Assembly: GCA_023229365.1 (NCBI GenBank)
Contig: JALNZK010000002.1
Span: 62,343 to 126,342, forward strand
DNA: 64,000 nucleotides
Source of the DNA: Pseudomonadota bacterium
Lineage (GTDB): Bacteria > Myxococcota_A > Polyangia > JAAYKL01
Reading direction: 5' to 3'
Shown: positions 13,489 through 64,000 of the stretch, one piece after another
How the letters are laid out: every line of letters starts with the position of its first letter
How positions within the stretch are numbered: position 1 is the stretch's first letter
The notes under the pieces: model-generated
The model's database searches: none
Told to the model about the DNA's origin: nothing
Seen by the model: only the letters and a program-made list of their open reading frames with translations
Program-made: the position numbers and the translations under genes

Positions 13489-13537
13489 TTTTGTTTCTGT
13501 TGTTTTTGTTGCTTCGACATTATTCTTTTTCCTTCAG

Positions 13538-13611: not shown

Positions 13612-13632
13612 TCATGTTTTCAAAAATTAAGT

Positions 13633-46315: not shown

Positions 46316-46325
46316 ATTTTACACC

Positions 46326-46550
46326 TTATACTGTTTTTGGTCTATTTGCTTTTATGCGTTTCATTTGGGCCGCTTTTTCTTTTCGCCTACGGCGTTCTCC
46401 CTTGCTTTCAAAATACTGTTTTGATTTCCACAAGGTCATCACACCAGAATCCGTTGTTTTTTTTCTAAACTTACCCAACAAATTCCTAAAGTTTTCTTCG
46501 GGCGACTTTCCATGTTCCACCCGCAAAATCGCTCTACAATTCACTGCCAT
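46326..46550 (-). CDS. rpsU: 30S ribosomal protein S21
   Basis: 74 aa basic protein with the S21-like pattern (FRNLLGKFRKK...YFESKGERRRRKEKAAQMKR). A GAGGAG Shine-Dalgarno lies upstream. Confidence 0.65.
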   Translation of the reverse strand: MAVNCRAILRVEHGKSPEENFRNLLGKFRKKTTDSGVMTLWKSKQYFESKGERRRRKEKAAQMKRIKANRPKTV

Positions 46551-47704: not shown

Positions 47705-48846
47705 GTGTAAGCTCCAATTCTTTTATCATTCTCTTTTTTCCATTGTTGTGCCACATGTTCCGTCTCTAGTAATCCAAAAATATCTTCATAGTTTCCAATA
47801 TTCATTTCTAAAATAGCCCTCTTAGTCAAATCGATAAATGCCTCATTGTCATTATACGCATTCCAGAAATGAGAAACTATAAGTTTTCTTGGTCCGAAAT
47901 CACATAAATTTCTTCTATAACCTTCTTGTCCTATTCCCCAAATTTGATCTGGACTTTCTGCTAAAATATAAGGCACTCCCATCATTCCAGCCAAACGTGT
48001 AGAAGCTGTCCAAAACTGCACTGTGAATTCGCATTGTTTCACAATCGCAAATGTTAGTTCTAAATCTCTGGCTTCTATCTTGCGAGACATGTCTATGATT
48101 CCATCAACAGGACAGGCTTGTGTACTCTGTTTTTCGCCCAACCAAATTGGATTATAACCCATGTCACGCAATAATTTAACCAATTTAACGTAAAATTCAG
48201 GCTGTAAATTCCTGCCATAGGTGGCTCTGCCTCTAGCGAAAACAGCCACACTTTTTGGCTTTAAATATTTTTTTGCTTCCTCCATCTTATCAGGCGAAGG
48301 AGGTGGCAAAGGAATTGCCAATCGTTTCCAAAAATGTATATCATTAAATAAAGATTTGACAAAAGTTGCGTTTTTACAATTAGGACATTCTTCGGTGTCT
48401 TCACGCCAATAATGATTGCATTTTTTACAAGAATTGACTATCGCACAAGCCGCCAAATGCTCAGGTGGGCAAAAATTACCCAATTTTGCCACTTCTTTAT
48501 GCAAAAGGGCAATGTTTTTTGAGGAATTGCTAAATGCATTAGAGTAATCTCTAAGCCACTGATGTTCCTCTTTTAGTTCCCAAAACTCATCTGCCAAGTG
48601 TCGATACAAATAAGAACGACCGTACCATCCTAAGACAATTACATACAAACCGCCATAATTCTGTAATACTTTTGGGATGCTATAAAGCACAGATAATGTT
48701 TCACACCCAAACTCAAAAAGCGTAGAAATAATTAGAATTTTGCGAATATCTTTGGGCTTAGGCCGAGCATTAAATTTATGGACATTAAAACTAATATCCT
48801 CCATTGTTTCTTCTTTGGCTTTGGGGGGCGACTTGATTAACCTCAT
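47701..48846 (-). CDS. hypothetical protein
   Basis: 381 aa ORF. Confidence 0.4.
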   Translation of the reverse strand: MRLIKSPPKAKEETMEDISFNVHKFNARPKPKDIRKILIISTLFEFGCETLSVLYSIPKVLQNYGGLYVIVLGWYGRSYLYRHLADEFWELKEEHQWLRDYSNAFSNSSKNIALLHKEVAKLGNFCPPEHLAACAIVNSCKKCNHYWREDTEECPNCKNATFVKSLFNDIHFWKRLAIPLPPPSPDKMEEAKKYLKPKSVAVFARGRATYGRNLQPEFYVKLVKLLRDMGYNPIWLGEKQSTQACPVDGIIDMSRKIEARDLELTFAIVKQCEFTVQFWTASTRLAGMMGVPYILAESPDQIWGIGQEGYRRNLCDFGPRKLIVSHFWNAYNDNEAFIDLTKRAILEMNIGNYEDIFGLLETEHVAQQWKKENDKRIGAYT

Positions 48847-49028
48847 GTATTTCCCCGAATTCTAATAAGCTTGACTTGCGTGTTGCATTTAGGGCATTTG
48901 AAAACTCTTGGACCGCCACAATTAGCACACTTTTTTACTTCGGCAAGATGAGCCAAATCAGCAGATATGCCAGTAGATAGCTCTGTCCACTTGCAATGAC
49001 GACAGTGCATTTTGAAGCATTTTTCCAT
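48843..49028 (-). CDS. zinc-ribbon small protein
   Basis: 61 aa with CRHCKW...CANCGG...CPKC. Confidence 0.3.
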   Translation of the reverse strand: MEKCFKMHCRHCKWTELSTGISADLAHLAEVKKCANCGGPRVFKCPKCNTQVKLIRIRGNT

Positions 49029-49082
49029 GCTTTAGCAGAGTAAGCTGTAAAAAAATTGCATTCCTAAAACGAAAACAAATCT

Positions 49083-50396
49083 CTAACCCCCGCCACCAGC
49101 TACCGCACCATAGTTGGGGAAAGAATAACTGGCGACTGCGGTTTGATCTAATCTATTTGCACCAATTTGAATAGTATTAGCCACCTCCAGCACATCCATT
49201 GATGTAGAAACATTACAAACACTCAATTCTGAATTTCTGATTATTGCTCTGGCAAATAGAGCAGATATGCTGGTGCCTGCGGTGTTAATGAACGGTCGAT
49301 AAAACCCAGTTAATACAACATTACTTACATTTACATTGCCCGATGTTGAATTATCATCAATGATAATGGGTCGATTGTTTGGTGTTGCGTCAAAATCAGT
49401 AGATGCTGATAATTTGCCAACTCTAATATTTCTATCTAAATTATATACTCGACCAGTATTATAATACCTGCCTGTGTAGGCTTCCGCAATTTGAATGTCA
49501 GTATTTGCACTATTTGAACTATTAGCGACCAATGAGACAATTGTAGCTGGTCCCAATCCTGCGTCGGCAAAACTATCGTAAATATTTTGTGAATATGTCC
49601 CGTTCTTATGAATTAACAACTCCTGCCCATTGGCCCATGTTGTTGTCACATCTCCCACTACTGTAAATGTCAATCCTAATGATGGTTGCCACCCATTGAT
49701 ACAAGTGCCCACTCCAGTAGAATTGCCGCCAGGGTTGAACGTAGAATTCAATATGGCACTGGCTGAAAGCCATCGATATGGCAAAATACCTCCTACTTCA
49801 GCCGACAATCTCCAACGACTCACATCTGCATCGTACCAAATAAAATATTGAGCCCCGCCAACAAGGCCATCTCTTTGATAAACTGTATGATCGTTCCATC
49901 CAGATGGATAATCAGAGGTTGGGTAGTAATATCCAGTCACATCGGGGCTTAATGTGCCAGTCACGGTACAAAAATCCGCTATACTTGTGCATAAAATATT
50001 GCTATACAATAACGGATCGCCATATAAGGTCAATTTTCCACCATCGGCAATTGTTATACCGTTCGCTCCATCCGTAGTTGTATCCCACAATATTTCGGCT
50101 GTATATGCTTTATCTAACACAGAACCTACCGTACCAATTCGCAATTCCCCAGTGGCACCAATCGCAATAGTATAATTACCCATTGTAAGCTTGGTTGATG
50201 CAGTCGTAGAAAAACTTAAAATCCCATTAACTACAATGCCTTTACTTGGTGTTGTGCTGTTGAGATCACAAGTCACAGTATCAGTAGACGCTATAACAAC
50301 ATCATCTGTGCCTATGGTTGGTGCAACACCACCCGACCATGTTGCACCAACCGACCATGTTCCACCACCAGTGCCATTGGATGTTTTTGTTGCCAT
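49083..50396 (-). CDS. Gly/Thr/Ser-rich repeat protein, probable fibre/structural protein
   Basis: 437 aa of low-complexity beta-rich sequence (GTGGGTWSVGATWSGGVAPTIGTDDVVIASTD...). Confidence 0.4.
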   Translation of the reverse strand: MATKTSNGTGGGTWSVGATWSGGVAPTIGTDDVVIASTDTVTCDLNSTTPSKGIVVNGILSFSTTASTKLTMGNYTIAIGATGELRIGTVGSVLDKAYTAEILWDTTTDGANGITIADGGKLTLYGDPLLYSNILCTSIADFCTVTGTLSPDVTGYYYPTSDYPSGWNDHTVYQRDGLVGGAQYFIWYDADVSRWRLSAEVGGILPYRWLSASAILNSTFNPGGNSTGVGTCINGWQPSLGLTFTVVGDVTTTWANGQELLIHKNGTYSQNIYDSFADAGLGPATIVSLVANSSNSANTDIQIAEAYTGRYYNTGRVYNLDRNIRVGKLSASTDFDATPNNRPIIIDDNSTSGNVNVSNVVLTGFYRPFINTAGTSISALFARAIIRNSELSVCNVSTSMDVLEVANTIQIGANRLDQTAVASYSFPNYGAVAGGGG

Positions 50397-50398
50397 AA

Positions 50399-51025
50399 TT
50401 AATCTCCCTGTGGGCTAATAGAATAGGGGAAACTTTGCGTCATAGCTGTGCTTAAAGCATCTATTTTACCTTTAAGAACTTGAATTTGTTTCTCAAATTT
50501 AGAAGCATTTTCCCCTCGACTCTCAAAAGCATTTAATTTGCACTCCATTTCGTGCAATTGAATTTTTAATGCATCCAAATTCTTGATATCTTCTTCGGAG
50601 AAAGTCAGCCCCAAAGAACCGGGCTCCAAAGACTGATCCATACCCACAGTATTTTGTCTTATGGGATTTGGTGTTTGAGCAATACTTTTCGCCACATTAG
50701 CAACATCTTCGGTGCTTTCTACAATGTCCTTTGTAGAAAGCCCAACCATACGACGCCATTCTTTGACTAATTTGGGGTCTATTGCCTCATTCAAAACAGA
50801 AGGATTTTCTGCCTTTTTGGTTACTTGATTCCAATATTTAACATCCTGCTCGGCTGGCTTATCGGTGGGGTGCGTATTTTGCAGCCCAAAGAAGCTTTCC
50901 TCGGAGGTTTTGGGAGAAGGAGTTACATTTGCTGCATTCTTAAACTTACCATCTGCTGTTGCTTTTTCTATAATTTGAGCCCATTTTTCTAGCTCTTCTC
51001 TATCTTGATAATACATATTTGCCAT
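50399..51025 (-). CDS. hypothetical protein
   Basis: 208 aa ORF. Confidence 0.4.
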   Translation of the reverse strand: MANMYYQDREELEKWAQIIEKATADGKFKNAANVTPSPKTSEESFFGLQNTHPTDKPAEQDVKYWNQVTKKAENPSVLNEAIDPKLVKEWRRMVGLSTKDIVESTEDVANVAKSIAQTPNPIRQNTVGMDQSLEPGSLGLTFSEEDIKNLDALKIQLHEMECKLNAFESRGENASKFEKQIQVLKGKIDALSTAMTQSFPYSISPQGD

Positions 51026-51066
51026 ATTTTTGACCTCTCGAATAATTAGTCACAGATATATATGTT

Positions 51067-51471
51067 CTAATTATTTATTTTCGGCCTTATTAATTCTATT
51101 ACCTCCCATTGTGGATCATCAGGCGGCACACATTCCCTATCTGTGTAGTAATAGAACTCGGCAACAAACTCATAAGGCTTCTGAGCCACTTCGTCTTCTG
51201 ACATGCCATCTAATAGGTCTTGGGCTATCTCAGCAGGGGTATGCCAAGAACTCTCCTTATTAGCATAAAATAGTTTAGACATTATGTTGGCAGCGGATTG
51301 AGCCGAATTGGGACGCTGCAATGTCTGAATGAGGAATTTCTTTTCTTCGCCATTTATTAGCTCACAAACGGCGTGAAAACAAGCCATTACCTGCCCTGGT
51401 TTGGGCTGGTGCTCCCGAATGTTGAAAAAATATTCGTTGAAATTAGATTGATCGATATCTTGATAGGTCAT
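51067..51471 (-). CDS. hypothetical protein
   Basis: 134 aa ORF. Confidence 0.35.
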   Translation of the reverse strand: MTYQDIDQSNFNEYFFNIREHQPKPGQVMACFHAVCELINGEEKKFLIQTLQRPNSAQSAANIMSKLFYANKESSWHTPAEIAQDLLDGMSEDEVAQKPYEFVAEFYYYTDRECVPPDDPQWEVIELIRPKINN

Positions 51472-51520
51472 GAAAAACCCTTTCTTGTTCTATATAAGAA
51501 AGTTAGCAAATTAAAAAATT

Positions 51521-52624
51521 ATGATATTTGCTCCATTATCTCCGCAATATATTCGCAATTATGAACATTTGACACATTACCAAACAGTGGCTCTCCGTTA
51601 CCTAAAAAAAAAGGCCGGAACATCAACAAACAATGTTGTTTTACATACCTCTGGCACAACCACTGGTTGTGCAAAAATGTACAAATATTCTGTGCCTGAA
51701 TTTGTAAATATTGAAAAATATCATTTTAATAAAATTTGTTACCTAAACAACCTAAATCCCAGGCTACGCATTGCATGGATGGTGTCAACAGCCAATTCAC
51801 AGTCTTTAAGCATTGATGGTCCATCCACTATTGCATCTCTAAACAACAATGTTTATACAATTTCAATCCCTTACAATGCCAATAAACAACAGTGGGAAGA
51901 AGCGTATGACATAACTGCCCAAATATGTCCAGATTTGGTCTATACGACACCATCTACTTTTATGGCGTCTTATTTTGCCACAGAAAACAAAACACCACTT
52001 AACTGTGTGGTTATGTTTAGCTGTGAGACCTTGTTTGACGACACTCGTGATAAATCACTCAAAATATACACATCTGTTATAGATAAAATGAGAGCGTGGG
52101 ATACGGGGCTAAGCTTTATAGAATGCAGGTACGGAACAAAACATATTGATGACGAATTATGTCTTGTTGAACAAAATAACTACAACGAAATTACAAGCAC
52201 AGATTTTTTCAATTACAGCCAACCATACGCCTCTTGTAAAACCGATGATCTGGGCGTAATACAAACAAAGAGTTGCCAATGCGGCATTTATGGCAGGGTC
52301 TTTACAGAATTTACAGGAAAGTCTATACAATGTCTTTGGGATAATAACAAAACGCCTTGTGACCCACATACAATTACATCATTTATATCTTCATTTCTTA
52401 AATCAAAAAATCAAACACCTGTGCCGTATATGATTCGACAAAACAAAAAAGGAATAATCACCTTATTTATAGATCAGCAAAATGAGACATCTGTATTGAT
52501 AACAAAAGATGTGTTAAAAGGATTATTGCATCAACCAGTGCAAATAGAACAATATGAGAATGCTCCAAGAAACAGCGACAATAAATTACTCTTTATCTCC
52601 TCCGAGTTCTCCTCTGTGCAATAA
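51521..52624 (+). CDS. adenylate-forming enzyme (PaaK / F390-synthetase-like)
   Basis: VVLHTSGTTTGCAKM matches the AMP-binding SGTTGxPK motif. The 367 aa size fits the PaaK/CapK family. It is convergent with the radical-SAM maturase. Confidence 0.4.
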   Translation: MIFAPLSPQYIRNYEHLTHYQTVALRYLKKKAGTSTNNVVLHTSGTTTGCAKMYKYSVPEFVNIEKYHFNKICYLNNLNPRLRIAWMVSTANSQSLSIDGPSTIASLNNNVYTISIPYNANKQQWEEAYDITAQICPDLVYTTPSTFMASYFATENKTPLNCVVMFSCETLFDDTRDKSLKIYTSVIDKMRAWDTGLSFIECRYGTKHIDDELCLVEQNNYNEITSTDFFNYSQPYASCKTDDLGVIQTKSCQCGIYGRVFTEFTGKSIQCLWDNNKTPCDPHTITSFISSFLKSKNQTPVPYMIRQNKKGIITLFIDQQNETSVLITKDVLKGLLHQPVQIEQYENAPRNSDNKLLFISSEFSSVQ

Positions 52625-53917
52625 GAAATAATACAATCCTACAATTGCATTATTGATAGTCCATCGAATTGTTTGACAACCACCATAATGGCATTTTTCA
52701 CAATTGTATTTCTTGTGTCGTTCTACACAACCTCCACCACAACTAGGTAATATGGGGCAATGAACACACTCCGTATCTTCACAGGGACTAATTGCTATAG
52801 CACTGTCTTCCTCTGCCAGTTTCATGTCATATATGGTTCCAATGGCGTCTTCGTCGCTTATTCCACCAATACATTTGGTCACATTACCGTTTGGAGCTAT
52901 TGTGTAATAAAATCTCATATTCTTCATGCACCCCGGTAAGGTAGGAGCAAGAAACCTATATACTTCTGTCTTTCCTTTCAATGCTTGAATAGTATCATTG
53001 GTCACAATGGCAAAATCTTCTTGCTTCATGCCCAATTGATTTGGAAATCGAGTCATCGCTGGCGATGGATTAACAATACCACCGGCAGAATTTCTCTGAT
53101 TGAGACCTTTGTTTAATATATCATCTAAAAATTGCTTGTATTGTTCAGAGTTTGAGTAATCAAGATTACTTCGCACATCTATTTCCAATCCCTTAGAATA
53201 TCCAGCAATTAAGTTCTCCATAATAATGTCATAAGAAGATGGGTTGGCACCAATTAAAGGTCTTCTTGCGTCATGTATTTCACGCATCCCATCAATAGTA
53301 ATTTGAACACTACGACAATTGATTGACAGCAATCGATCTATCATTTCGTTGTCTAATAATGTGCCGTTAGTAATAATATTGTTTGAGAATTTCACCCCTC
53401 TATTTTTGCAAACATCTTTAATTTTTTTGGCAAGATCACATACTATATTTGGGCACAACAACGGCTCGCCGCCATACCAAGTTATAGAAAAATTTATTGT
53501 AGGGGTGGAAGAAATACAATGGTCAATAAATCGCACAAGCTGATCTTGTACATCGGATGACATGTCGGTAGCCATGCAATATTCTTTGCACTCTTTTTCA
53601 TAACAATAAAAACAAGCTGCATTGCAGCGACTAGTCACAACAATGACAAATTTCTTCTCTTGATTGTTGTTAAGATGATCTACATCAGTTTGTCGAAAAG
53701 TTGCAAACTCATCCTCATCAACAGGCACTAAAAATTTGTGTTTGCGAAGCTTTCTTTTGAACTTACTTAAACATAATGTGCTGTCGGCTATTTTTTGAAA
53801 ATCCTTTAATCGATCATTCAATTTTATCAATGTGCCAGACACTTGGTTGTACAATAACCAAACATCTTCATGCTGCACCAATATGTTGTATTTAGAAAGT
53901 TTATACCTTTTAAACAT
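52586..53917 (-). CDS. radical SAM/SPASM peptide-maturase-like enzyme
   Basis: CNAACFYC (Cx3Cx2C) follows a roughly 95 aa N-terminal extension that looks like an RRE. The C-terminal SPASM region carries extra cluster cysteines (CEDTECVHCPILPSCGGGC...CEKCHYGGC). Confidence 0.75.
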   Translation of the reverse strand: MFKRYKLSKYNILVQHEDVWLLYNQVSGTLIKLNDRLKDFQKIADSTLCLSKFKRKLRKHKFLVPVDEDEFATFRQTDVDHLNNNQEKKFVIVVTSRCNAACFYCYEKECKEYCMATDMSSDVQDQLVRFIDHCISSTPTINFSITWYGGEPLLCPNIVCDLAKKIKDVCKNRGVKFSNNIITNGTLLDNEMIDRLLSINCRSVQITIDGMREIHDARRPLIGANPSSYDIIMENLIAGYSKGLEIDVRSNLDYSNSEQYKQFLDDILNKGLNQRNSAGGIVNPSPAMTRFPNQLGMKQEDFAIVTNDTIQALKGKTEVYRFLAPTLPGCMKNMRFYYTIAPNGNVTKCIGGISDEDAIGTIYDMKLAEEDSAIAISPCEDTECVHCPILPSCGGGCVERHKKYNCEKCHYGGCQTIRWTINNAIVGLYYFLLHRGELGGDKE

Positions 53918-53929
53918 CTTATCCCTTTA

Positions 53930-54133
53930 TCAAGCTACCATATTGCTACAACAACCACTACAACCACAAACGCTACTAAAATCTGCTAATACAGTCTGAC
54001 AAGCGTGGGGAGCATCTGTTCGAACAAATACTTCACACTCATCAAAGGAAAACAATCCATTAAACAAAATACGAAACAACTTGGGATACCATTTTCGTTG
54101 TTGAGTGCAGGATTTTTCACTTGTTGCTAACAT
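53930..54133 (-). CDS. Cys-rich small peptide, candidate RiPP precursor
   Basis: 67 aa with a strong AAGGAGG Shine-Dalgarno. Its stop lies 13 nt upstream of the radical SAM gene. The C-terminus is cysteine-dense (SSVCGCSGCCSNMVA). Confidence 0.45.
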   Translation of the reverse strand: MLATSEKSCTQQRKWYPKLFRILFNGLFSFDECEVFVRTDAPHACQTVLADFSSVCGCSGCCSNMVA

Positions 54134-54162
54134 TGTACCTCCTTTAGGACAAGCATATATAG

Positions 54163-56781
54163 CTAGTCTATAATAGTAAAATCTTCCTTGATTTTATCTA
54201 TTACATCTTGTTTGACTATGGCACTTTCCGGCCAACGCAAAACATTCAAACGACCATCTTGGCTTTTTTCCTTAGGCACCATTTCTTTCCTAAGCTCTCT
54301 GGGGAAACTTTCAAATGTGTAATCTTTCCAATCCCCCATAGGCTTTTTAAGCCTCATTTGTAATAAATTGCCCCACTCGCATGTCGGCTCCCACCAAGCA
54401 ATTTCTTCCTCAAATCTTTCAAAATCATCTTTCCAAATAGTAACAGTTTCTGCTCTTCCATTGCCGTCCACAACTTTGACCTTGTATCCTTTCTTAGACT
54501 TCATAATTCGAGGCTTCTCTATTATCTGCACCTCCACCGGCTTAATGGCATGATCGCCCTGTGCAATTGCTATATCGAACTCCTCAAAGGTTCTTCCTTT
54601 ATAATCAGGAGATTGCGTCAACACATAATCCCAAGGAAAACCATAATATTTGTTTTCGGCAATAGACAAGTGATGTGATAATAAAACCTGCATTTCGTGA
54701 TCTATTTTTCCCGATGGATTCCAATTATCCATTGTGATAACGGTATCGAGTGCTACCTTTTTCTCATTGTTGGCTTTAGATTTGTTATATTGATTGATGG
54801 CTGTAAAAACATCTTCGGCCATGCCGTCCAAACACATAGCACTATGCTTTTCAATAAATTCCTTTTTCTTCAGGTCTTTAAACTGAGCACACCAATCGCC
54901 ATCTATTATTTTCTCATATTCTGATTGTACTAAGGATATAATTTCATCTAGACGATCTTGTTGAGAAGTAATATATCTCTTATCTCGATCTTTGCGTGAT
55001 TTGCTTTTGCAACGATAGAATTCAGCAAATTCATACAAAACCATCGGTTCATCAGAAAAAACCCGTAAAGCAATCAGTGGCTTCAAAACATCAGCATAAG
55101 TGCCAAATCGTTCCATAAAATCTACAAAAGAACTATAGGGCTGTCCTGCCACGATTTTTTCAGCAACCTCATCACCAACACCCTTAATGTCCGCAAACCC
55201 TAAATATATTTCATTGTCTATAATTTCAAAATGAACCTTCGACTTATTGATATCAATACGATTGATCGGCACCCCAAATCTTTGGGCTTCTAATCTGTAT
55301 TCTTTAATCTTGTCAGCATTTTTTTCACAACTCAAAATAGCTGCAAAGAACTCTAAAGGATAATGAGCTTTCAAATACAACAGCATTGCAGAAACAAACG
55401 AATATGAAGTAGCATGACTTAAATTGAAAGCATATCCCGAAAACTTTGCTATACTCTCAAAAAATTCATTAGCTTCTTGCTCAGAATAATCCAATCTTTG
55501 TTGGCATTGTTCCAAAAATTGAACTTTGGCTTTTTGGAAAACCTCGCCTTTTTTCTTGGAAATAGCCTTCACAATTTTATAACATTGAGGCAATGGAAAA
55601 CCCCCAATAACATTGAAGATTTTCATGATCTGTTCTTGGTAACACATCACCCCATATGTTTTTTCCAAAATAGGCTTTAACAATGGATGCAACTCGTATG
55701 GCTCGCCCTTTTTTCGCTTACAATAGGTGGTGTGGAGTTGAGAGCCCATAGGACCAGGACGATATAAACTAGTGAATGCCACTAGATCATCAAATGAAGT
55801 CACACCACCCTTTTTTGCCAAATCCCTAATGCCGGGAGAATCAAATTGGAAAATGCACTTTAATTTTGCTTCGTTTGCCAAAGCAATAGCATCAGGATCA
55901 TTTTGGTACTTCTCTGTGTCCGACCAATCATCCTGTGCCTCTAAATTACACATCCTGTCGATACCGTATCGCTCACGAATCAATTTCAAGCACTTAGCTA
56001 TTTGCACTAAGTTTGTAATAACCAATACATCGACTTTCACCAATCCTACAGGGGCCAAGTCTTGAGCATGCAGTCCTTCAGTCCATGCTGAAAGCGGATT
56101 GCCTTGCTTGTCCACAACCAATGGAACAAAATCAGCCAAGGGCATGCTAGAAATAATCAAACCACCAGCATGTTTGCCCATTCCCCTTACCCTGCCATAC
56201 AATCGCTTGGCAGCATCATATACCTCTGGATATTGCTCGCAATAAGCAGCCAATTCCTTGTTTAGCTCCAAAGCTTTTTCCCACGTAATGGGTTTATTTT
56301 CATCATCTTTATCTTCAATCTGGGTGGTAACCGTGTTGACTTCATCATGACTCAAGCCATAAACTCTGGCCATATCCTGTAAAGCAGATTTGATGCCATA
56401 AGTGGCATAATTACCAATATTACAAACATATTCCGCCCCAAAGGTTTGGGGAGCCCAGACATTTTTTAACCACTGTTGAATTTCAGGCAAGAAATCTGAA
56501 TCTATGTCGGGGAACTCGGCAATAAACGTAAACTTTGGCGGTTGGCTGATATCAAATTCATCGGCTAGTCCTAAAAGATGGACCACCAACATATTGTTTT
56601 CATTTTTGGCAAACTTACATTTTCTTTCGTACAAATCCACTAAATAATAGTGCTCATCTTGCCAGTCGATATGTCTAAACTCCAATTTCAGACGATCTGC
56701 ATATTGAGCGTTTGAACATAGTCCTAAGCTCTCTATTTTTTGCTGGCACAACAACTGTAGCTCTTTTTTATAATCTCTCAT
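54163..56781 (-). CDS. dnaE: DNA polymerase III alpha subunit, lacking N-terminal PHP domain
   Basis: Pol III alpha palm and fingers signatures (GMGKHAGGLIISSMPLADFVPL, GLVKVDVLVI, FDSPGIRDL, LYRPGPM). At 872 aa it has no PHP-type N-terminal region. Confidence 0.8.
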   Translation of the reverse strand: MRDYKKELQLLCQQKIESLGLCSNAQYADRLKLEFRHIDWQDEHYYLVDLYERKCKFAKNENNMLVVHLLGLADEFDISQPPKFTFIAEFPDIDSDFLPEIQQWLKNVWAPQTFGAEYVCNIGNYATYGIKSALQDMARVYGLSHDEVNTVTTQIEDKDDENKPITWEKALELNKELAAYCEQYPEVYDAAKRLYGRVRGMGKHAGGLIISSMPLADFVPLVVDKQGNPLSAWTEGLHAQDLAPVGLVKVDVLVITNLVQIAKCLKLIRERYGIDRMCNLEAQDDWSDTEKYQNDPDAIALANEAKLKCIFQFDSPGIRDLAKKGGVTSFDDLVAFTSLYRPGPMGSQLHTTYCKRKKGEPYELHPLLKPILEKTYGVMCYQEQIMKIFNVIGGFPLPQCYKIVKAISKKKGEVFQKAKVQFLEQCQQRLDYSEQEANEFFESIAKFSGYAFNLSHATSYSFVSAMLLYLKAHYPLEFFAAILSCEKNADKIKEYRLEAQRFGVPINRIDINKSKVHFEIIDNEIYLGFADIKGVGDEVAEKIVAGQPYSSFVDFMERFGTYADVLKPLIALRVFSDEPMVLYEFAEFYRCKSKSRKDRDKRYITSQQDRLDEIISLVQSEYEKIIDGDWCAQFKDLKKKEFIEKHSAMCLDGMAEDVFTAINQYNKSKANNEKKVALDTVITMDNWNPSGKIDHEMQVLLSHHLSIAENKYYGFPWDYVLTQSPDYKGRTFEEFDIAIAQGDHAIKPVEVQIIEKPRIMKSKKGYKVKVVDGNGRAETVTIWKDDFERFEEEIAWWEPTCEWGNLLQMRLKKPMGDWKDYTFESFPRELRKEMVPKEKSQDGRLNVLRWPESAIVKQDVIDKIKEDFTIID

Positions 56782-56844
56782 AATTCTACTATCACTATAT
56801 CAGTTTGCTTGCATCAAATCAACAGATAATCACTAATTTAAATT

Positions 56845-57987
56845 ATGAAAAACCTATCTTTTTATGTCTGCCAAACTGTCAATGAGAGTGGGGAAAAAGT
56901 CTATTTTAACACCCTCACAAGGCAACAACTGCCCATTTCTGCGACCTTTGACGAGTTGGAGTCCAATTTGTTTTTATCGGGACAAGAAAGAGAGTCCTTG
57001 TTGAAATTGTTGATAATTCATGACCCCCCAAAGTTTCTAAACTTTAACATAGCACCAACATTGGAATGTAACTTACGATGCACACACTGCAACTTCTCGC
57101 ATCTTTTAGAAGCAAAGCAACAAAAACCATTAAATGTTGATAAAATTTGTGATTTTATAATACGATCTAATGTCAAAGATATCTGCATATTTTTTTATGG
57201 TGGAGAAAACCTACTGGAAGAAGAAAAATGCCATGAAGTTATAGACAAGATCAAATCTCATGCAAACATTTTACACATAGGCATGGTCTCTAATCTAACG
57301 ATTGATCTAAATGAAAGAAGATTATCTTTAATTGAAAAATTAAGCCAACTAAGCATTAGTTTAGATGGTGGTAATGATTTGTTGAACGATGCACAAAGAA
57401 TACCACTCACAGGTAATTGGAGTCCATTTGAAAAAACAACCAATAATTTGAAAATATTAATAACCAAAGGACTGAGGCACAAAATCAATTTGAAAGCTTC
57501 TTTTGGCGATGCATCCAATACACCAGAACTACGAAAAGAATATTATCTCTTTGCTCTTCAGTTTGGATTTAAACCTGAACAAATAAACATAGGGCTTATC
57601 GGACCACATTCCGAGTGCAGGAAAACCACCAAATCTTTTGCTGATATATTGTTAAAACCTATATTCACGCCTACATGGTGTTGTAAATACAGACATGAAG
57701 TATTATTAACCGACTATACAGAAAATATATTTAGCGATTATTATACATATACAAAGATAGGAAATTTATCAGATAGTTTGAGTACAATCATAGAGAGAAG
57801 AAATGACCTAATTTTAAAAACCATGCCCTTGCTAAATGACACAAAATGCATGAAGTGTCAAGCAGCAGGGTATTGCTGGGGAAGCTGTGCGATGTTGGAT
57901 TTTGTTGGGGGAAAAAGCAATTTTTGCGATCCAGTAGCTCTTCAACACCAAATACAAAAAATGGCCAATGACAACAAACTATGCTAA
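56845..57987 (+). CDS. radical SAM/SPASM peptide-maturase-like enzyme (second copy)
   Basis: CNLRCTHC (Cx3Cx2C) follows a roughly 70 aa N-terminal extension. The C-terminal SPASM motif is CMKCQAAGYCWGSC. Confidence 0.7.
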   Translation: MKNLSFYVCQTVNESGEKVYFNTLTRQQLPISATFDELESNLFLSGQERESLLKLLIIHDPPKFLNFNIAPTLECNLRCTHCNFSHLLEAKQQKPLNVDKICDFIIRSNVKDICIFFYGGENLLEEEKCHEVIDKIKSHANILHIGMVSNLTIDLNERRLSLIEKLSQLSISLDGGNDLLNDAQRIPLTGNWSPFEKTTNNLKILITKGLRHKINLKASFGDASNTPELRKEYYLFALQFGFKPEQINIGLIGPHSECRKTTKSFADILLKPIFTPTWCCKYRHEVLLTDYTENIFSDYYTYTKIGNLSDSLSTIIERRNDLILKTMPLLNDTKCMKCQAAGYCWGSCAMLDFVGGKSNFCDPVALQHQIQKMANDNKLC

Positions 57988-57996
57988 GGAAAAAAA

Positions 57997-58170
57997 ATGA
58001 TGACAACACTAACAGATGCAGAAAAAATCACTTTTGAGTGTCCAGATGCAGAAAAACTACAACAATTGCTGGACGAGTGCTTGTGTATGGAAATTAATGC
58101 GGGCACCAATTCAAATTCTACTGCTGGCTATGTTTGTGCTTGCCCCGTATATACAATTTCAATAACCTAA
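57997..58170 (+). CDS. Cys-rich small peptide (57 aa), candidate RiPP precursor; absent from the supplied ORF track
   Basis: An AAGGA Shine-Dalgarno precedes ATGATG, 9 nt after the radical SAM stop. The peptide is MMTTLTDAEKITFECPDAEKLQQLLDECLCMEINAGTNSNSTAGYVCACPVYTISIT. Its stop overlaps the ATG of the next gene (TAATG). Confidence 0.4.
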   Translation: MMTTLTDAEKITFECPDAEKLQQLLDECLCMEINAGTNSNSTAGYVCACPVYTISIT

Positions 58171-59258
58171 TGAATCTTTTGCAATGTTATAATCAATATT
58201 ACAAAAACCCAACCCTTGAAAGTGCCAAACTTTTATGGCAAGAAATTCAGTCCTATAACTTTTGCGATTATGTCGATTTTGCTTCAGATGTAAAAGCTGC
58301 CCGTGAGGATTGTAAAAATTTTAGTTCAATTTCTCTAAGGACAAATGGCTCCACAAATATACCTCGGGAATATAAATTTGGTCCGTTTTTCGATTTTTGG
58401 ATCAATAGCATGGAGTCTGCAATCAAGCCAAGCATAGGGAAAACAATATACATTCAATCAATGTTTCCTTGCGGAGATAAAAAAAATGCTATTATGCGTG
58501 TTAAAGATAATTCTCTTATGGATTATGCTGGCATTTTTTATTGGGACCAAAACAATGCCCTATCTTTTTTGATAAATTTCCTTCATAGCGTAAAAGAGCC
58601 AATCACTATCAGCACCGTCTCTAATACACTACTTTTTCTATTAGAACAAAAAAGTTTCTTAGAGTTCTTAAAACAAGACAAAATACTTGCTATCCGTACT
58701 TTAGATTGGGAGCCTTTTTTCAAATCCAGCAAAATACCATCCTCGATCCACCTTAATAACAACATGGTTGATTGGTCAATCACATCTAACTTTTACACCT
58801 GCCCATTTCGCACATTGCATTTTTTTCCAACTTTTTCTGGAAACACAAGCTTAATCAATCTTGCAAATAATCAAATTGAATCTGATGATTTATTTGAAAT
58901 CAATCCGCAAGTCAGAGTGTGTAATTGTGGAAAGTCATATTTAAACTTCAAATTTATACCGCATGTCAACAATGCAATAAAAATAAACAATAAAATAATA
59001 TACGAACCAAGTTTTATAGAAAAATTAGATTCTTGCTATTTAAACCTTCAGTTTGTTCAAACAGGGCAAGAAACTATTGATATATTATATATTGGAAATA
59101 TATCACAACATGACAAAGATGCCATCAACACATTGTTTGAAGGTAGAACTAATTTTGTAAGAAACAAATATCTCGTAATTGGAAGAAAACTAATTTGCTT
59201 TTACCGCAATTCCAATAACATTCCTTACCAATCATATTCTGGCATCACAATTTTATAA
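58170..59258 (+). CDS. hypothetical protein (possible second PaaK-like enzyme, weak)
   Basis: Start reassigned to MNLLQCYN, which is translationally coupled to the peptide ORF. The listed upstream part overlaps the peptide in another frame. Confidence 0.4.
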   Translation: MNLLQCYNQYYKNPTLESAKLLWQEIQSYNFCDYVDFASDVKAAREDCKNFSSISLRTNGSTNIPREYKFGPFFDFWINSMESAIKPSIGKTIYIQSMFPCGDKKNAIMRVKDNSLMDYAGIFYWDQNNALSFLINFLHSVKEPITISTVSNTLLFLLEQKSFLEFLKQDKILAIRTLDWEPFFKSSKIPSSIHLNNNMVDWSITSNFYTCPFRTLHFFPTFSGNTSLINLANNQIESDDLFEINPQVRVCNCGKSYLNFKFIPHVNNAIKINNKIIYEPSFIEKLDSCYLNLQFVQTGQETIDILYIGNISQHDKDAINTLFEGRTNFVRNKYLVIGRKLICFYRNSNNIPYQSYSGITIL

Positions 59259-59892
59259 TCAACTTCTTTAATGATCCTATTTCCGTCTTCGACAAAGGCT
59301 TGGATTTCCTGCCCTCCCAATTGGTTGTTCTCACACCATGCTCAATATGCTGTATCACCAACTTTTGTAATGTTTTTTTAGAATCCCAGTAATCTGCAAA
59401 CACATCATCATACCATCCAGCAGTGTCCCAATCTTCTGGATAGTATTTTAGCCTCGTAGCATGAAACAACTGAAAAAACCCAAGTATACGCATGTTGTCA
59501 CCATCAATATACATTTGTTTGCCAGAAATATTGTCAATTTCATACCTTACCGCCCCATATAAAAACTCTTTATCTAAAGTCAATCCTTCGATTATTTCCC
59601 TAAAGTTATCTGGAAGAATGATATCTGCGTCTAAAGCAAGCATCCAATCTTTTTTATCCAAATAACTTATGGCATCATTTAGTCCCTTACCTTTGTTAAA
59701 TGCTGCACCGCCTTCATAAAATCGACTTGATTCAACACATTCTATTTGATGCTTTTTACACACACTCTTGGTTGCCACATCTTCTGTCGAAGTAATGATT
59801 ACCCATCTGTCAAAATGCTTTTTGTTTGAATATAAACACACATCCAAAAAATCACTATAACCCACGCAAGATGTAAAAACTTCTAAATACAT
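59245..59892 (-). CDS. DxD-motif nucleotide-sugar transferase-like protein (paralog A)
   Basis: LALDADIILP DxD motif. It is about 60% identical in amino-acid sequence to the adjacent gene. Confidence 0.4.
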   Translation of the reverse strand: MYLEVFTSCVGYSDFLDVCLYSNKKHFDRWVIITSTEDVATKSVCKKHQIECVESSRFYEGGAAFNKGKGLNDAISYLDKKDWMLALDADIILPDNFREIIEGLTLDKEFLYGAVRYEIDNISGKQMYIDGDNMRILGFFQLFHATRLKYYPEDWDTAGWYDDVFADYWDSKKTLQKLVIQHIEHGVRTTNWEGRKSKPLSKTEIGSLKKLIIKL

Positions 59893-59894
59893 AA

Positions 59895-60563
59895 TTAGGC
59901 GAATTTAATTACCGATTTGCTGAAAGTGCTAACATCGTTTTTGGATAATATTTTTGATCTTCTGCCACACCAATTTGTTGCAACAATCCCATGTGGCATA
60001 TGTTCGACTACTACATCTTCCAACATTCTATGTCTTCCGTTCCAATAAGACACAAATTCCAAATCATAATTTCCAGCATGGGGATAAGATTCTGGATAGA
60101 CCTTGGCCCTTTGCATAACATCAGAATGTCCATTAAACAATTGAAAATAACCCCAGGGCGAAATTACAGGAGTCACATCAGTCCAACATTGGCATGTATC
60201 CAAACTTTTCCTTGGAACTCCATATAAAAAATCATTATTCAGTTTTTTAGCACCAATCATTTCCCTAAAATCAGCAGGAAGAATAATATCAGCATCTAAG
60301 GCAAGAACCCAATCTTTCTTAAACAAATGATTTATAACATCGTTTAGTGCTTTTCCTTTATTAAATTTATCTCCATTATTATAAAATCTTCGAGACTCCA
60401 CACACTCAACACCACTTTTCTTGCATATGTTTTTTGTGTTTTCATCTTCTGAGCTTGTGACAACAACCCATCTGTCAAAGTGCTTTTTATTTGCACTTAT
60501 GCAAATGTTTAAGAAATCACCATAATTCACACATACTGTAAAAACTTCCAAATAATTAATCAT
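59895..60563 (-). CDS. DxD-motif nucleotide-sugar transferase-like protein (paralog B)
   Basis: It is a tandem duplicate of 59245..59892 (YLEVFT.CV.Y.DFL..C...NKKHFDRWV). Confidence 0.4.
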   Translation of the reverse strand: MINYLEVFTVCVNYGDFLNICISANKKHFDRWVVVTSSEDENTKNICKKSGVECVESRRFYNNGDKFNKGKALNDVINHLFKKDWVLALDADIILPADFREMIGAKKLNNDFLYGVPRKSLDTCQCWTDVTPVISPWGYFQLFNGHSDVMQRAKVYPESYPHAGNYDLEFVSYWNGRHRMLEDVVVEHMPHGIVATNWCGRRSKILSKNDVSTFSKSVIKFA

Positions 60564-61623
60564 ATGCCCTTAGTGTGAAATCAATAAAACTACTGTTAAT
60601 GTTTTCTATTCTATCGCCTTTTATTTTATATCCTATTTGATTGGTTCCCTCATAATGAGTCATATCTTCATTTAATTTTAATTCGTCCCGCCAAATACCT
60701 TTGTCTGTTGGCCATCTAAGACTGAGATTTAAACCATCAATGGACCAAGTTTCTGGACCTTGTGGAGTGTTTAATGTTCCATTTGGATAAGCCACAAATC
60801 GTCTGTGTTTTCGACCATTAACATAGTGTTCCCAAACTCCATCAAAAGAAAACTTGGGCATTCGCTCTTTAACCACGCCTTTTTTAAAAAATGGCTCCAA
60901 AACATCTTGCACAACATCTTCCACAACTATCGATAAATTTGCCTGTTTAAACCAATCTCTATAAGTCACTAGTGGCTGATTTGTTTTCTGAAAATTTCCT
61001 TCGAAACCATATCCCATTTCTTGCAACTCATCTTCTGTAAAGACTAAATGCACATAAGCCTTATTGATATGTTTGTATAAGTGTCCACCATGTCTTGATA
61101 AAAACGGATGACAACGAACAAAAATATCTGTATTTTTATTTGCTACCTCTCTTACTTTGGTTAGGATGCCTACAGGATCAGTTGAATGATCTAGAACATC
61201 ATAAAGCATGATAAAATCAAATGGCGACATTGCTTTAATTTTATCAAAATTAGTGGTCAATAAATACTTACCCTCTTTTTCCCACTCAAAAGAAGAACTC
61301 TCCACAATGTCGTACCCTGCTGCTTGTGATCCCAACTGAGAAGCCACAACAGCAACATGTCCTAAGCCACAACCAAAATCTAAGAACTTTTTGCCATCAA
61401 CCTCCCAATTAGAGAAATTAATGATTGAATCGGCACGTTCAAATAAATCATCTTCAGATTCCATGCATATTAGTTCTTGGGGCACCGCAACAGGCCAACT
61501 TTCACTATGTAACAAATCTTTTAATTGTAGAATTTTAAACTGGGCATCCCAAACTTTACATTTTGTCAAAAATGTTCTGATTTCATCCAAAGATTGCAGC
61601 ACTTGCTCTACTGTTTCTATCAT
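60556..61623 (-). CDS. class I SAM-dependent methyltransferase
   Basis: LDFGCGLGHVAVVASQLG is SAM-binding motif I, and an acidic motif II (YDIVE) follows. Confidence 0.65.
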   Translation of the reverse strand: MIETVEQVLQSLDEIRTFLTKCKVWDAQFKILQLKDLLHSESWPVAVPQELICMESEDDLFERADSIINFSNWEVDGKKFLDFGCGLGHVAVVASQLGSQAAGYDIVESSSFEWEKEGKYLLTTNFDKIKAMSPFDFIMLYDVLDHSTDPVGILTKVREVANKNTDIFVRCHPFLSRHGGHLYKHINKAYVHLVFTEDELQEMGYGFEGNFQKTNQPLVTYRDWFKQANLSIVVEDVVQDVLEPFFKKGVVKERMPKFSFDGVWEHYVNGRKHRRFVAYPNGTLNTPQGPETWSIDGLNLSLRWPTDKGIWRDELKLNEDMTHYEGTNQIGYKIKGDRIENINSSFIDFTLRAYD

Positions 61624-61633
61624 AATTACACCA

Positions 61634-62428
61634 TTAAAAAAGCGGCTTATTATATCTACTAATTCTGTTACTTTTTATCAAATTGTAATAATTCCACCCT
61701 CTGTGAAATTGATTACGATTAGATTCTACAAAATGATATCCATCAAAATTATTCATGTTAAAATTTTTGTAACTACAACACACCTTACTATCTAAGTGTA
61801 TTTCATTGGGATGTAGCTCAAGAATTTTGTCTTTCGATATGGTAATTTGATCCTTATGCAAAAAAACCAATGCTAATAATCCTTGCTCGTCCGCAGAGTT
61901 TAAATTTTCAAGCTCGCCATACTTACGCCACACTCTACATATATCTTTTTGAAAATCATGACCAGGAACCAATCCAATCAAACCAGAGTTGTATTTTTTT
62001 GTCTTTGGTAGATAACAACTATATCGTCCAAAATATCGAGTTGGCTCATCCAAACACAAACACCTTTTGCCGCCAAGAAAATCGTCTATTTCTGGCAAAT
62101 GTTTGCAAATTACAACATCATTATCCATTATAATTTCATATGACTCTATCCTTATTCTAGCTGGGCAAAGTTTCCATAGCGTTCCGAGATTTTCCTGTGA
62201 GAGAGGGCAATCACAAATCTTCTGCTCATATAATGTGAGTAAATGAATTTTGGCAACTTCTCTAAGCCTATCAAGCTGTGCTTCAGTCAAATTATTGTAA
62301 CACACAAACCAATCAAAATTATCTCTGCCCAATGCGTTTATTGTTTGAATGACCGATTCCTCAAAAATATGAAACCCAACCCTTGAGGGCCTTCCAATTG
62401 TCCATCGAAATATCGGCTTTAAAATCAT
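61634..62428 (-). CDS. hypothetical protein, possible glycosyltransferase
   Basis: The N-terminus KPIFRWTIG resembles the DXD sugar-transferase family start. This is a weak call. Confidence 0.3.
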   Translation of the reverse strand: MILKPIFRWTIGRPSRVGFHIFEESVIQTINALGRDNFDWFVCYNNLTEAQLDRLREVAKIHLLTLYEQKICDCPLSQENLGTLWKLCPARIRIESYEIIMDNDVVICKHLPEIDDFLGGKRCLCLDEPTRYFGRYSCYLPKTKKYNSGLIGLVPGHDFQKDICRVWRKYGELENLNSADEQGLLALVFLHKDQITISKDKILELHPNEIHLDSKVCCSYKNFNMNNFDGYHFVESNRNQFHRGWNYYNLIKSNRISRYNKPLF

Positions 62429-62429
62429 A

Positions 62430-63242
62430 TCAGTTAAATTTCACTTCATTTTTATCTACCACATTAGATAAAAAATCATCCAATGTTTTGTGTTTTTCAG
62501 GGTGTAAATGACCGGCATATACCCTGATTTTTGGATCAATGGGCAGTTTCCACTTGCTACAATAATAATAGTAACTCCACACATTGCTTAAGTCATAAAG
62601 TCTTTGGTCGGAAAGATTGTGTTTTTGATGCAACTCCACACAATCAATAGGTAAAAATCTTCCGCCACAAACAATAGCTTTTCTCCAAAAATCATAGTCC
62701 TTATACCCCCATGCCTCAAAATCAGCACTAAATCCCCCATATTCCCAATAAGTTTTTTTTGCAAACAATACGCATCCAGCAAACGGGTTTTTATGCCCCA
62801 CAATATCTACATTTTCTACCCTATGATCCGGCACCAATAAAGACTCATGCTTATATGGATTATCTCTCACCATTCGTATAGAAGAAATATCTACATCTTC
62901 TTTAAAAGAAAACAGATATTTGGGAAAGATAAACAATCCATCTTCTATCAATGATGCATTGTTTAAAAAGTTTGTAGGAAGAATTCTATCGCTGTCCAAG
63001 TACCATATGTGATTGCCACTACTGGCCTCAATGGCTGCATTAAGGGCTTCGCCAAGCCGATAAAACTTTCCTCTTCTCTCTATCTCTAAAACTCTCCACC
63101 CCTCTGGATGTATGTCTGTTTGTCCATCCACACATAAAATTTTTTCACATGTGGCAACATAATCCATATCATTCAGACAATCAATCGTATTAATAAGCTG
63201 TCTGTGACGATCTGTAGAGTATAAAACAACAATACTGAGCAT
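62430..63242 (-). CDS. hypothetical protein, possible glycosyltransferase
   Basis: The N-terminus LSIVVLYSTDR is a GT2-like start. This is a weak call. Confidence 0.3.
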   Translation of the reverse strand: MLSIVVLYSTDRHRQLINTIDCLNDMDYVATCEKILCVDGQTDIHPEGWRVLEIERRGKFYRLGEALNAAIEASSGNHIWYLDSDRILPTNFLNNASLIEDGLFIFPKYLFSFKEDVDISSIRMVRDNPYKHESLLVPDHRVENVDIVGHKNPFAGCVLFAKKTYWEYGGFSADFEAWGYKDYDFWRKAIVCGGRFLPIDCVELHQKHNLSDQRLYDLSNVWSYYYYCSKWKLPIDPKIRVYAGHLHPEKHKTLDDFLSNVVDKNEVKFN

Positions 63243-63245
63243 ACT

Positions 63246-63938: not shown

Positions 63939-64000
63939 AAAATCCTCTATTCCAGCATCCTTAAATTGTTTGGCAACATCCAGATCGGCAAGAGCTTGCA

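Follow-up and report, generated by a model that had tools for sequence, protein, structure and literature searches.

What is made by the two radical S-adenosylmethionine (SAM) enzymes encoded on either side of the polymerase gene dnaE in a 64,000-nt stretch of contig JALNZK010000002.1 (positions 62,343 to 126,342 of the forward strand; hereafter, the window)? The window probably carries two paralogous, independently expressed peptide-maturation cassettes, the accessory cargo of a huge-phage-like genome, each consisting of a precursor peptide (pep1 or pep2), a radical SAM/SPASM maturase (rSAM1 or rSAM2), and a PaaK-family ligase (ANL1 or ANL2). Gene content, enzyme classes, conservation of the trio, and the layout of the precursors are what the sequence analysis shows. 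All open reading frames (ORFs) reported for this region by a first-pass annotation were present where it had placed them, and its description of opposite-strand cassettes on either side of dnaE agreed with coordinates and strands. The features are as follows:

51521-52624, plus strand: ANL1, 367 aa, a PaaK-family adenylate-forming ligase of type 1, convergent with rSAM1
52586-53917, minus strand: rSAM1, 443 aa, a radical SAM/SPASM peptide maturase of type 1 with an N-terminal extension of ~88 aa
53930-54133, minus strand: pep1, 67 aa with 8 Cys, the putative type-1 precursor, ending 12 nt before rSAM1
54163-56781, minus strand: dnaE, 872 aa, separating cassettes 1 and 2
56845-57987, plus strand: rSAM2, 380 aa, a radical SAM/SPASM-type peptide maturase of type 2
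57997-58170, plus strand: pep2, 57 aa with 5 Cys, the putative type-2 precursor, starting 9 nt past rSAM2
58170-59258, plus strand: ANL2, 362 aa, a PaaK-family ligase of type 2

The short, Cys-dense ORF that had been noticed beside each radical SAM gene, pep1 upstream of rSAM1 and pep2 downstream of rSAM2, is conserved elsewhere in both cases. Shine–Dalgarno sequences precede both peptide genes (AAGGAGG for pep1, 5 nt before the ATG, and AAGGA for pep2), and the ATG of ANL2 overlaps the stop codon of pep2 (TAATG). The PaaK-like enzyme converging with cassette 1 was confirmed as ANL1, the structural model of which has the PaaK fold. It had been regarded as an accessory of that cassette, but a ligase proved to be the constant third partner of both: ORF 58170-59258, which lies inside the span reported earlier and had not been described, encodes a second PaaK-like ligase, so each cassette is a trio. 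The 3' ends of ANL1 and rSAM1 overlap by 39 nt (window 52586-52624). This convergent overlap of ligase and radical SAM genes is kept in two related loci (39 nt in L002, 5765-5803; 65 nt in L004, 2898-2962), which suggests possible antisense or coupling constraints on expression.

We measured how regularly the two enzymes occur together by scoring every retrieved locus with family profiles for ligase/radical SAM pairing; locus labels joined by a slash (e.g., L019/20) denote one distinct locus in the counts. ANL1-type ligases always adjoined rSAM1-type enzymes, in seven distinct loci (the window, L002/3, L004, L019/20, L021, L022, and L023), and ANL2-type ligases always adjoined rSAM2-type enzymes, in 10 (the window, L005/6, L007, L008/9, L010/11/14, L012/13, L016, L024, L025, and L027). 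The trio was present in ~15 further distinct loci besides the window (six of type 1 and nine of type 2). The exceptions to pairing were L026, L028, and L029, the contigs of which were too short to tell, and L015, where a possible radical SAM ORF below profile detection lies two genes away. Carriers found by alignment-based scans included IMG/VR viral contigs of 90, 113, 239, 245, 354, and 381 kb, the largest of which holds a pair of type-1 cassettes at a distance of 21 kb. When IMG/VR was scanned by pattern with rSAM1 or rSAM2 as a single protein, nothing was found. Neither ligase type was detected in 185,579 bacterial and archaeal species, represented by one genome each, in pattern-based scans that are limited by the patterns used. 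Searches of 50,697 GenBank phage records with both ligases (tblastn) gave no matches, PHROGs held no family for either ligase or either peptide, and a viral structure library returned four distant ANL matches only.

The identity of rSAM1 and rSAM2 as peptide maturases is supported by full-length matches of rSAM1 to maturases of RiPPs (ribosomally synthesized, post-translationally modified peptides), by the proximity of the rSAM2 model to CteB, by seven C-terminal Cys, and by the presence of a bacterial-type relative in a RiPP cluster. Both enzymes carry a CxxxCxxC motif (CNAACFYC in rSAM1, CNLRCTHC in rSAM2) and match PF04055 (E = 1.5e-13 and 8.7e-10, respectively). Residues 6-425 of rSAM1 aligned with the RiPP maturase models of NCBIfam: TIGR04463 (E = 2.3e-57; 194.7 bits, cutoff 525), CefB (NF038107; 3.7e-53; 180.9 bits, cutoff 600), geopeptide (3.6e-50), Clo7bot (TIGR04334; 1e-48; 166.1 bits, cutoff 600), and PapB (NF047865; 5.9e-28; 98.1 bits, cutoff 340). 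The SCIFF maturase model (TIGR03974) gave 72 bits against a cutoff of 425, and the match to the anaerobic sulfatase maturase model (5.8e-18) was much weaker than those to the RiPP maturase models. The best sequence match of rSAM1 in the PDB was the thioether synthase CteB. Its C-terminal 124 residues passed the SPASM model TIGR04085 (37.3 bits, cutoff 27) and contain the full C..GxxxxC..CxxCx5Cx3C..C motif, reading C-x18-C ... CxxCx5Cx3C ... C. For rSAM2, the top NCBIfam matches were PapB (1.2e-15; 57.6 bits, cutoff 340), HxsB (8e-15), and CcpM. Its AlphaFold (AF2) model (predicted local distance difference test, pLDDT, 81) shows a beta-beta-beta-alpha-alpha module at residues 8-56, before the barrel. 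Foldseek ranked CteB first for this model, followed by the anaerobic sulfatase-maturating enzyme (anSME), ChlB, and SuiB, and the alignment to CteB, which bears a RiPP recognition element (RRE), extended over ~440 columns. Among eight sequences of the rSAM2 family, C75/C79/C82 and seven C-terminal Cys (CC ... CxxCx5Cx3C ... C) are invariant. The SPASM cysteines assigned to both enzymes in the first-pass annotation are present in rSAM1, and rSAM2 combines seven invariant Cys with a TIGR04085 score of 26.4 bits, just below the cutoff of 27.

Homologs of rSAM1 were found at 65%, 63%, and 48% identity. Two more distant relatives differ in the company they keep. P0006 (31% identity) is the closest relative beyond the close clade, and after it come an ANL1-family gene (E = 2.5e-82) and genes for a methyltransferase and a sulfotransferase. 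P0008, a bacterial-type relative (30% identity to rSAM1), lies in a Clo7bot-type RiPP cluster with recognized precursors and an ABC transporter and with no ligase.

The role of the small ORFs as precursors is supported by their leader/core layout, by purifying selection on pep1, and by their tight spacing or overlap with the enzyme genes. pep1 has an N-terminal leader followed by a core, ...ACQTVLADFSSVCGCSGCCSNMVA-COOH. Homologs of pep1 lie directly upstream of rSAM1 relatives in L002/L003, L004, L019, L022, and L023. The small ORF of L002/L003 reads MRTDTIRPQQENQAPHRSARKFFRDLLGFRECEVFVRKDAPQACTTVLADFSTVCGCSCCGVTVA; that of L004 was uncalled, has 48 aa, and ends in ...RECELVFETHSVRQCSPTFADYTGCCLCDAVNA; and the more distant type-1 peptides end in ...DLKGTKLADCPSQGCSGLA (L019), ...KLADCTFQAPCTGLT (L022), and ...YGTKLVDSGGCPFLA (L023). 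In an alignment of six type-1 precursors, the sole invariant core positions were D51 and C58, the C-terminal residue was always small, and the C-terminal pattern was [LF][AV]D...C...[LVN][AT]-COOH. The codons of pep1 and its L002 homolog comprise eight that are identical, 28 that differ synonymously, and 28 that differ non-synonymously, which points to purifying selection on the amino-acid sequence and to a real coding gene.

pep2 comprises a leader, ...TDAEKITFECPDAEKLQQLLDE, and a core, ...NAGTNSNSTAGYVCACPVYTISIT. Small ORFs in the equivalent position, between or beside rSAM2-family and ANL2-family genes, were found in L005, L007, L008, L010 (two tandem copies), L012, L016, L024, L025, and L027. 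An alignment of 11 type-2 precursors gave a leader motif of roughly FTExER..LG.P...EI..(I/L)LD. The cores are hypervariable, with an abundance of Cys, Gly, Ser, Thr, Asn, and Pro. A single Cys is invariant and in most cases belongs to an aromatic-C-x-C motif (YVCAC, FCAC, YCYC, YCSC, CYC, or FCHC). A conserved leader joined to a variable core is the standard layout of RiPP precursors. The conservation patterns indicate that pep1 and pep2 are real genes with this predicted layout. Neither peptide matched a Pfam or NCBIfam precursor model at E ≤ 0.1, the SCIFF family included.

ANL1 has the P-loop TSGTTTGCAK and belongs to a family of nine members with 31 invariant positions, among them the C-terminal K355 and a Cys/His set, C202/H208/C252/C254. 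Its AF2 model (pLDDT 86; predicted template modeling score, pTM, 0.86) has the two-domain ANL fold. The top Foldseek matches of this model were BT_0428, PaaK1, NatL2, AjiA1, and ClxA (E from 1e-12 to 1e-9, probability 1.00), with template modeling (TM) scores of 0.46-0.59 when normalized to the query. There was a weak match to TIGR02304 ("F390 synthetase-related"; 34.6 bits, cutoff 251.9), and the family profile matched the phenylacetate-CoA (coenzyme A) ligase entries 9s3l (titled ClxA) and 4r1l in the PDB at 3e-4. Neither ligase had a Pfam match, PF00501 AMP-binding included, and ANL2 had none in NCBIfam. Phmmer searches of PDB sequences with ANL1 and ANL2, and with the ANL2 profile, gave no matches.

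The ANL2 family comprised 171 representatives (clusters) at E ≤ 1e-3 among 1.84 billion proteins, and most of the best 150 of these 171 are about 350-390 aa long. Members share the P-loop SNGSTGxxR and invariant residues including C211, H217, C251, C253, and K340. Profile–profile comparison of the two families (hhalign) gave a probability of 98.8% and E = 5.6e-17 over 287 columns, by which measure ANL2 is a distant homolog of ANL1. A Cys/His quartet including a CxCG motif is invariant in both ligase families. Characterized PaaK enzymes are not known to have such a quartet, which might hold a structural zinc ion or help to dock the peptide.

Pairwise similarity between the cassettes is low. rSAM1 and rSAM2 are 22% identical, pep1 and pep2 had no BLASTP similarity, and the BLASTP match between ANL1 and ANL2 was marginal (26% over 78 residues, E = 0.18). 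As the ligase families are joined by profile–profile comparison, the cassettes would be ancient paralogs of one three-gene design. A recent duplication or a bounded mobile element was also considered and rejected, given the lack of DNA-level similarity between the cassettes and of flanking repeats. Rfam detected no riboswitch or other RNA family in window 46000-64000, and promoter and terminator scans found sites no more often than in shuffled sequence.

A working mechanism can be proposed. Translation of the precursor would come first, and the ribosome-binding site of pep1 is the strongest of its cassette. The N-terminal extension of the maturase would then dock on the leader. Reductive cleavage of SAM at the CxxxCxxC cluster would yield a 5'-deoxyadenosyl radical that takes a hydrogen atom from a core residue, and the sulfur of a core Cys would be joined to that carbon, giving one or more thioether rings of the sactipeptide or ranthipeptide type. 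This chemistry is proposed from family resemblance. PapB and QhpD make Cys–Asp links; by analogy, the likeliest partners in type 1 would be the invariant Asp and the downstream Cys. The ligase, with ATP, would activate a carboxylate of the peptide. This could be that of the C-terminus, which is conserved and small in type 1, or that of an acidic side chain, and capture of the activated group by a nucleophile would produce a second ring or an attached group. Alternatively, the ligase could nucleotidylate a hydroxyl, as F390 synthetase does. That the ligase acts on the peptide at all is something we infer with less support than the maturase step. In many loci, glycosyl-, methyl-, or sulfotransferases might decorate the product further, as their overlapping gene arrangement suggests. 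With no protease or exporter in the cassettes, the product would act within the infected cell or be freed at lysis, and its candidate roles are antagonism, signaling, and counter-defense.

Candidate genes for such decoration follow cassette 2 on the opposite strand, where two glycosyltransferase (GT) family 2 (GT2)-like genes, a methyltransferase gene, and two more GT-like genes are found:

59245-59892 and 59895-60563, minus strand: GT2-like paralogs (Pfam Glyco_tranf_2_4, Glycos_transf_2)
60556-61623, minus strand: class I methyltransferase (Pfam Methyltransf_23)

In related type-2 loci, such genes overlap head to tail with those of the cassette (rSAM-MT23-GT2 in L007, ANL-GT in L008, and GT2-rSAM in L010). 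Sulfotransferase genes recur in L002, L008/9, L019/20, and L023, and Methyltransf_23 genes in the window, L007, L008, and L019. By comparison with these loci, we infer that the window GT and methyltransferase genes may belong to the system. At the far end of this cluster (59245-63242), a third radical SAM-type ORF (63246-63938, minus strand) continues towards the window end, and only its C-terminal part is in an ORF of the window; it has weak HxsC and SPASM-type matches and a CxxCx5C motif near its end. Among the genes near related cassettes, further tailoring candidates are those for a protein with an HTTM domain, for another small radical SAM enzyme, and for a protein of 195 aa without a Pfam match, which by eye may be 2-oxoglutarate-oxygenase-like. 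IS605 tnpA/tnpB genes and HNH endonuclease genes, that is, genes of mobile elements, also lie beside related cassettes (coordinates for both sets: L002 1644-3283 and 11506-12678; L004 781-1392; L021 9452-10354; L023 8594-9181 and 11503-12348).

Several points weigh against reading the two loci as peptide-maturation cassettes. Neither radical SAM enzyme reached the curated cutoff of any named maturase family in NCBIfam. In rSAM2, CC stands where the canonical SPASM motif has its GxxxxC element, and the Pfam SPASM model PF13186 matched neither enzyme, isolated C-terminal pieces included. The N-terminal extensions, described as RRE-like in the first-pass annotation, are putative recognition domains on indirect evidence: the first 88 aa of rSAM1 aligned to the N-termini of the TIGR04463, FlmE/OhkG, and CefB maturase models (E from 2e-4 to 1e-2), but the Pfam PqqD/RRE model PF05402 matched neither enzyme, isolated N-terminal pieces included. 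Type-2 cores offer no conserved acidic residue or C-terminus as a target for the ligase, the substrate of which may be a small-molecule acid instead of the peptide. No leader peptidase, exporter, or immunity gene was found in either cassette. The GT and methyltransferase genes of the window lie on the strand opposite to cassette 2, so their linkage to it is weaker than in L007, L008, and L010. Finally, the type of crosslink in either peptide is a guess.

With these points in mind, we compared the peptide-maturation reading with other explanations. The one we rate highest among them, as possible if somewhat doubtful, keeps the chemistry and changes the destination of the product. Small modified proteins would be retained in the infected cell and act there, for instance in host takeover or inhibition of host defense, as opposed to released antimicrobial or signaling peptides. 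No cassette examined contains an exporter, leader peptidase, or immunity gene, while the cluster of the bacterial relative P0008 has an ABC transporter, and the cassettes sit among early or replication-type genes; however, phage lysis makes an exporter unnecessary, and hypervariable cores fit either role. It is unlikely that the cassettes serve to build a cofactor or small molecule from the peptide, as happens for pyrroloquinoline quinone (PQQ) and mycofactocin, with the radical SAM enzyme modifying C-terminal residues, the ligase and transferases processing that piece, and the rest being discarded. PqqE and MftC are RRE-bearing radical SAM/SPASM enzymes and so share the class of the window enzymes, and mycofactocin is glycosylated by a GT2 enzyme and methylated. 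The recurrence of GT2 and methyltransferase genes in the loci and the C-terminal end kept by the type-1 precursors would fit such a pathway. Against this, type-2 cores are hypervariable in both length and sequence, a trait expected of bioactive peptides but not of a cofactor, and the loci showed no partner genes for a peptidase or dehydrogenase resembling MftD/E or PqqB/C. The 25 best NCBIfam matches of rSAM1 and of rSAM2 include no mycofactocin or PQQ maturase model, and the mycofactocin model TIGR03962 matched only the third radical SAM ORF at 63246-63938 (E = 0.011).

Two explanations dispense with the peptides altogether. Transferases are used in phage thymidine hypermodification, and the window has an amidoligase-like gene, a GT/methyltransferase cluster, and cassettes flanking dnaE, all of which could be taken to suggest a non-peptide substrate (DNA or nucleotide hypermodification, or glycan synthesis) with unrelated small ORFs. 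Phage thymidine hypermodification pathways also use radical SAM enzymes, according to PMC8989533. We nevertheless hold this explanation to be very improbable: across ~17 loci the kind of small ORF follows the enzyme type, and these ORFs show the division into leader and core; rSAM1 and rSAM2 both match peptide maturases best; the same dnaE neighborhood in phage LR756511.1 has no cassette 1; and other cassettes are not beside dnaE. The idea that rSAM1 and rSAM2 are anaerobic sulfatase-maturating or other housekeeping SPASM enzymes next to chance ORFs deserves almost no credence and is contradicted by the analyses run here. Although anSME was among the structural and sequence matches, its model (TIGR03942 / PRK13745) has a cutoff of 349 bits and gave 65.1 for rSAM1 and 31.6 for rSAM2; the N-terminal extension common to rSAM1 and the RiPP maturase models is missing from anSME; no sulfatase was identified among the annotated neighborhood genes; and the small ORFs are conserved and under purifying selection. 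The first-pass annotation had named sulfatase maturases or cofactor enzymes with no RRE, together with unconserved small ORFs, as the outcome that would undo it. That outcome did not materialize: RiPP models matched rSAM1 far better than the sulfatase maturase model did, and the small ORFs are conserved.

How do the peptide-maturation cassettes compare with known systems? Bacteria are well known to carry RiPP clusters that center on a radical SAM/SPASM maturase. With ranthipeptide and sactipeptide systems (CteB/thermocellin and PapB/freyrasin, and TIGR04463, CefB, and Clo7bot in silico), the cassettes share a short precursor, composed of a leader and a core that contains Cys, beside a radical SAM gene, as well as a radical SAM enzyme with a putative recognition-type extension at the N-terminus and a SPASM domain. 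They differ from these systems in their sub-cutoff scores, the lack of a known precursor family, protease, or exporter, the obligatory PaaK-family ligase (none is present in the Clo7bot-type cluster of P0008), and the huge-phage-like carrier. As all equivalog cutoffs were unmet and the precursors fit no known model, the cassettes would not be SCIFF, PapB, CefB, or another named system. Of the sactipeptide, ranthipeptide, or SCIFF-type architecture proposed at first, the RiPP maturase class was thus upheld and membership of a named family, SCIFF included, was not. The system would work like a ranthipeptide- or sactipeptide-type RiPP system and, by its sequences, falls outside every named family.

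The ligases share their fold with PaaK-family AMP-ligases that act without CoA (NatL2, AjiA1, and ClxA; Foldseek E from 1e-10 to 1e-9) and with coenzyme F390 synthetase, as well as the P-loop, the C-terminal Lys, and the weak TIGR02304 match. In contrast to those enzymes, they are ~60-70 residues shorter (360-370 vs. ~430 aa), show 11-14% identity, have no Pfam AMP-binding match, and possess the extra invariant Cys/His quartet. NatL2, AjiA1, and ClxA make ester or amide bonds, and the substrates of the known enzymes are small aromatic acids or F420, whereas the genomic partners of the cassette ligases are a ribosomal peptide and a radical SAM enzyme. With mycofactocin and PQQ, the common ground is a radical SAM/SPASM enzyme and a small peptide, together with GT2 and methyltransferase enzymes in the mycofactocin pathway; the cassettes lack a significant MftC or PqqE match and MftB/D/E or PqqB/C/D partners, and their type-2 cores are hypervariable. 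Like glycocins (SunA/SunS), they link a GT2 gene to a Cys- and Ser/Thr-rich ribosomal peptide (overlapping in L007, L008, and L010), but the window GT genes are on the other strand and glycosylation is a prediction from gene content. To our knowledge, glycocin clusters contain no radical SAM enzyme and no PaaK-like ligase. In the literature, our coverage of which was incomplete, we found no description of a PaaK-type ligase as a fixed partner of a radical SAM RiPP maturase, nor of such cassettes in phages or of relevant work on OhkG/FlmE.

The carrier of the window was assessed via its gene content and synteny. The source contig is 340,072 bp long and its NCBI record reads "MAG: Proteobacteria bacterium" (locus tags M0R80_). 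The DnaE of the window was closest to that of the 595-kb uncultured phage LR756511.1 (42%), and synteny with that genome extends over the genes downstream of dnaE, including, further downstream, a zinc-ribbon ORF and two ~380-aa proteins. PHROG matches in the window were RtcB, NAD-ligase, and endonuclease VII, along with phage families that have no known function; the amidoligase-like gene is also present. This gene content and synteny point to a huge phage, which may have been mis-binned. No capsid or terminase genes were identified within the 64-kb window, so the label "phage" rests on synteny with LR756511.1 and on the viral contigs with the same cassettes. Megablast of window 51000-59500 against GenBank phages gave no match. 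The window also contains an array of 15 transfer RNA (tRNA) genes (8269-13703, minus strand; His x2, Lys x4, Trp x2, Cys, Gln x3, Ile, and Met x2). Such arrays are typical of very large phage genomes.

The replicative polymerase gene between the cassettes, as described earlier, is present, but as the C-terminal part only: no PHP domain is present, and the alignment to the DnaE of LR756511.1 (1179 aa) covers residues 406-1173 of the latter. The PHP-encoding part was absent across the whole window (tblastn). A separate 472-aa N-terminal DnaE part with PHP and palm (aligning to residues 10-436) is encoded on the L010/L011 contig (L010 823-2241, minus strand), near a type-2 cassette of its own. 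Taken together, the C-terminal part in the window and the separate N-terminal part in L010/L011 suggest that DnaE appears to be split in this phage group.

In LR756511.1, dnaE is directly followed by a homolog of window gene 50399-51025, whereas pep1, rSAM1, ANL1, and a 134-aa ORF of unknown function intervene between the two in the window (window 51067-54133 compared with L001 (LR756511.1) 14325-14977). Cassette 1 is thus an insertion relative to that phage, and its position beside the polymerase gene is most simply incidental; the cassettes of other contigs are not adjacent to dnaE. From this comparison, the location looks purely positional. A gene for a 437-aa Gly/Thr/Asn-rich protein with a G8 domain (49083-50396, minus strand) separates two genes that are near neighbors in LR756511.1, with a short HNH-type ORF between them there, and would be another accessory insertion. 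Two genes upstream of the L002 cassette, and separated from it by a sulfotransferase gene, is an IS605 tnpA-tnpB pair; another tnpB lies ~5.7 kb downstream. The absence of cassette 1 from the LR756511.1 region, the IS605 genes near the L002 cassette, and the two cassettes on the 381-kb contig suggest that the cassettes are accessory cargo.

We propose, as a plausible though tentative generalization that falls somewhat short of an even chance, that the obligatory pairing of a radical SAM/SPASM enzyme and a PaaK-family ligase marks out a new class of RiPPs found mainly or only in huge phages, often with several cassettes per genome. Its thioether-bridged products would also be ligated or nucleotidylated, and often glycosylated, sulfated, or methylated, and the phage would use them during infection or at lysis against its hosts, against bacterial competitors, or against other phages. 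The one-to-one tie between ligase and maturase in two diverged subfamilies would imply a peptide chemistry for which we found no description, such as closure of a further ring, capping of the C-terminus, or addition of a nucleotide. The three-gene cassettes amount to two matched sets of enzymes and substrate, with many natural core variants, and are open to co-expression. If the absence of the ligases from bacterial and archaeal genomes holds, phages would have their own reservoir of modified-peptide chemistry, beyond clusters borrowed from their hosts.

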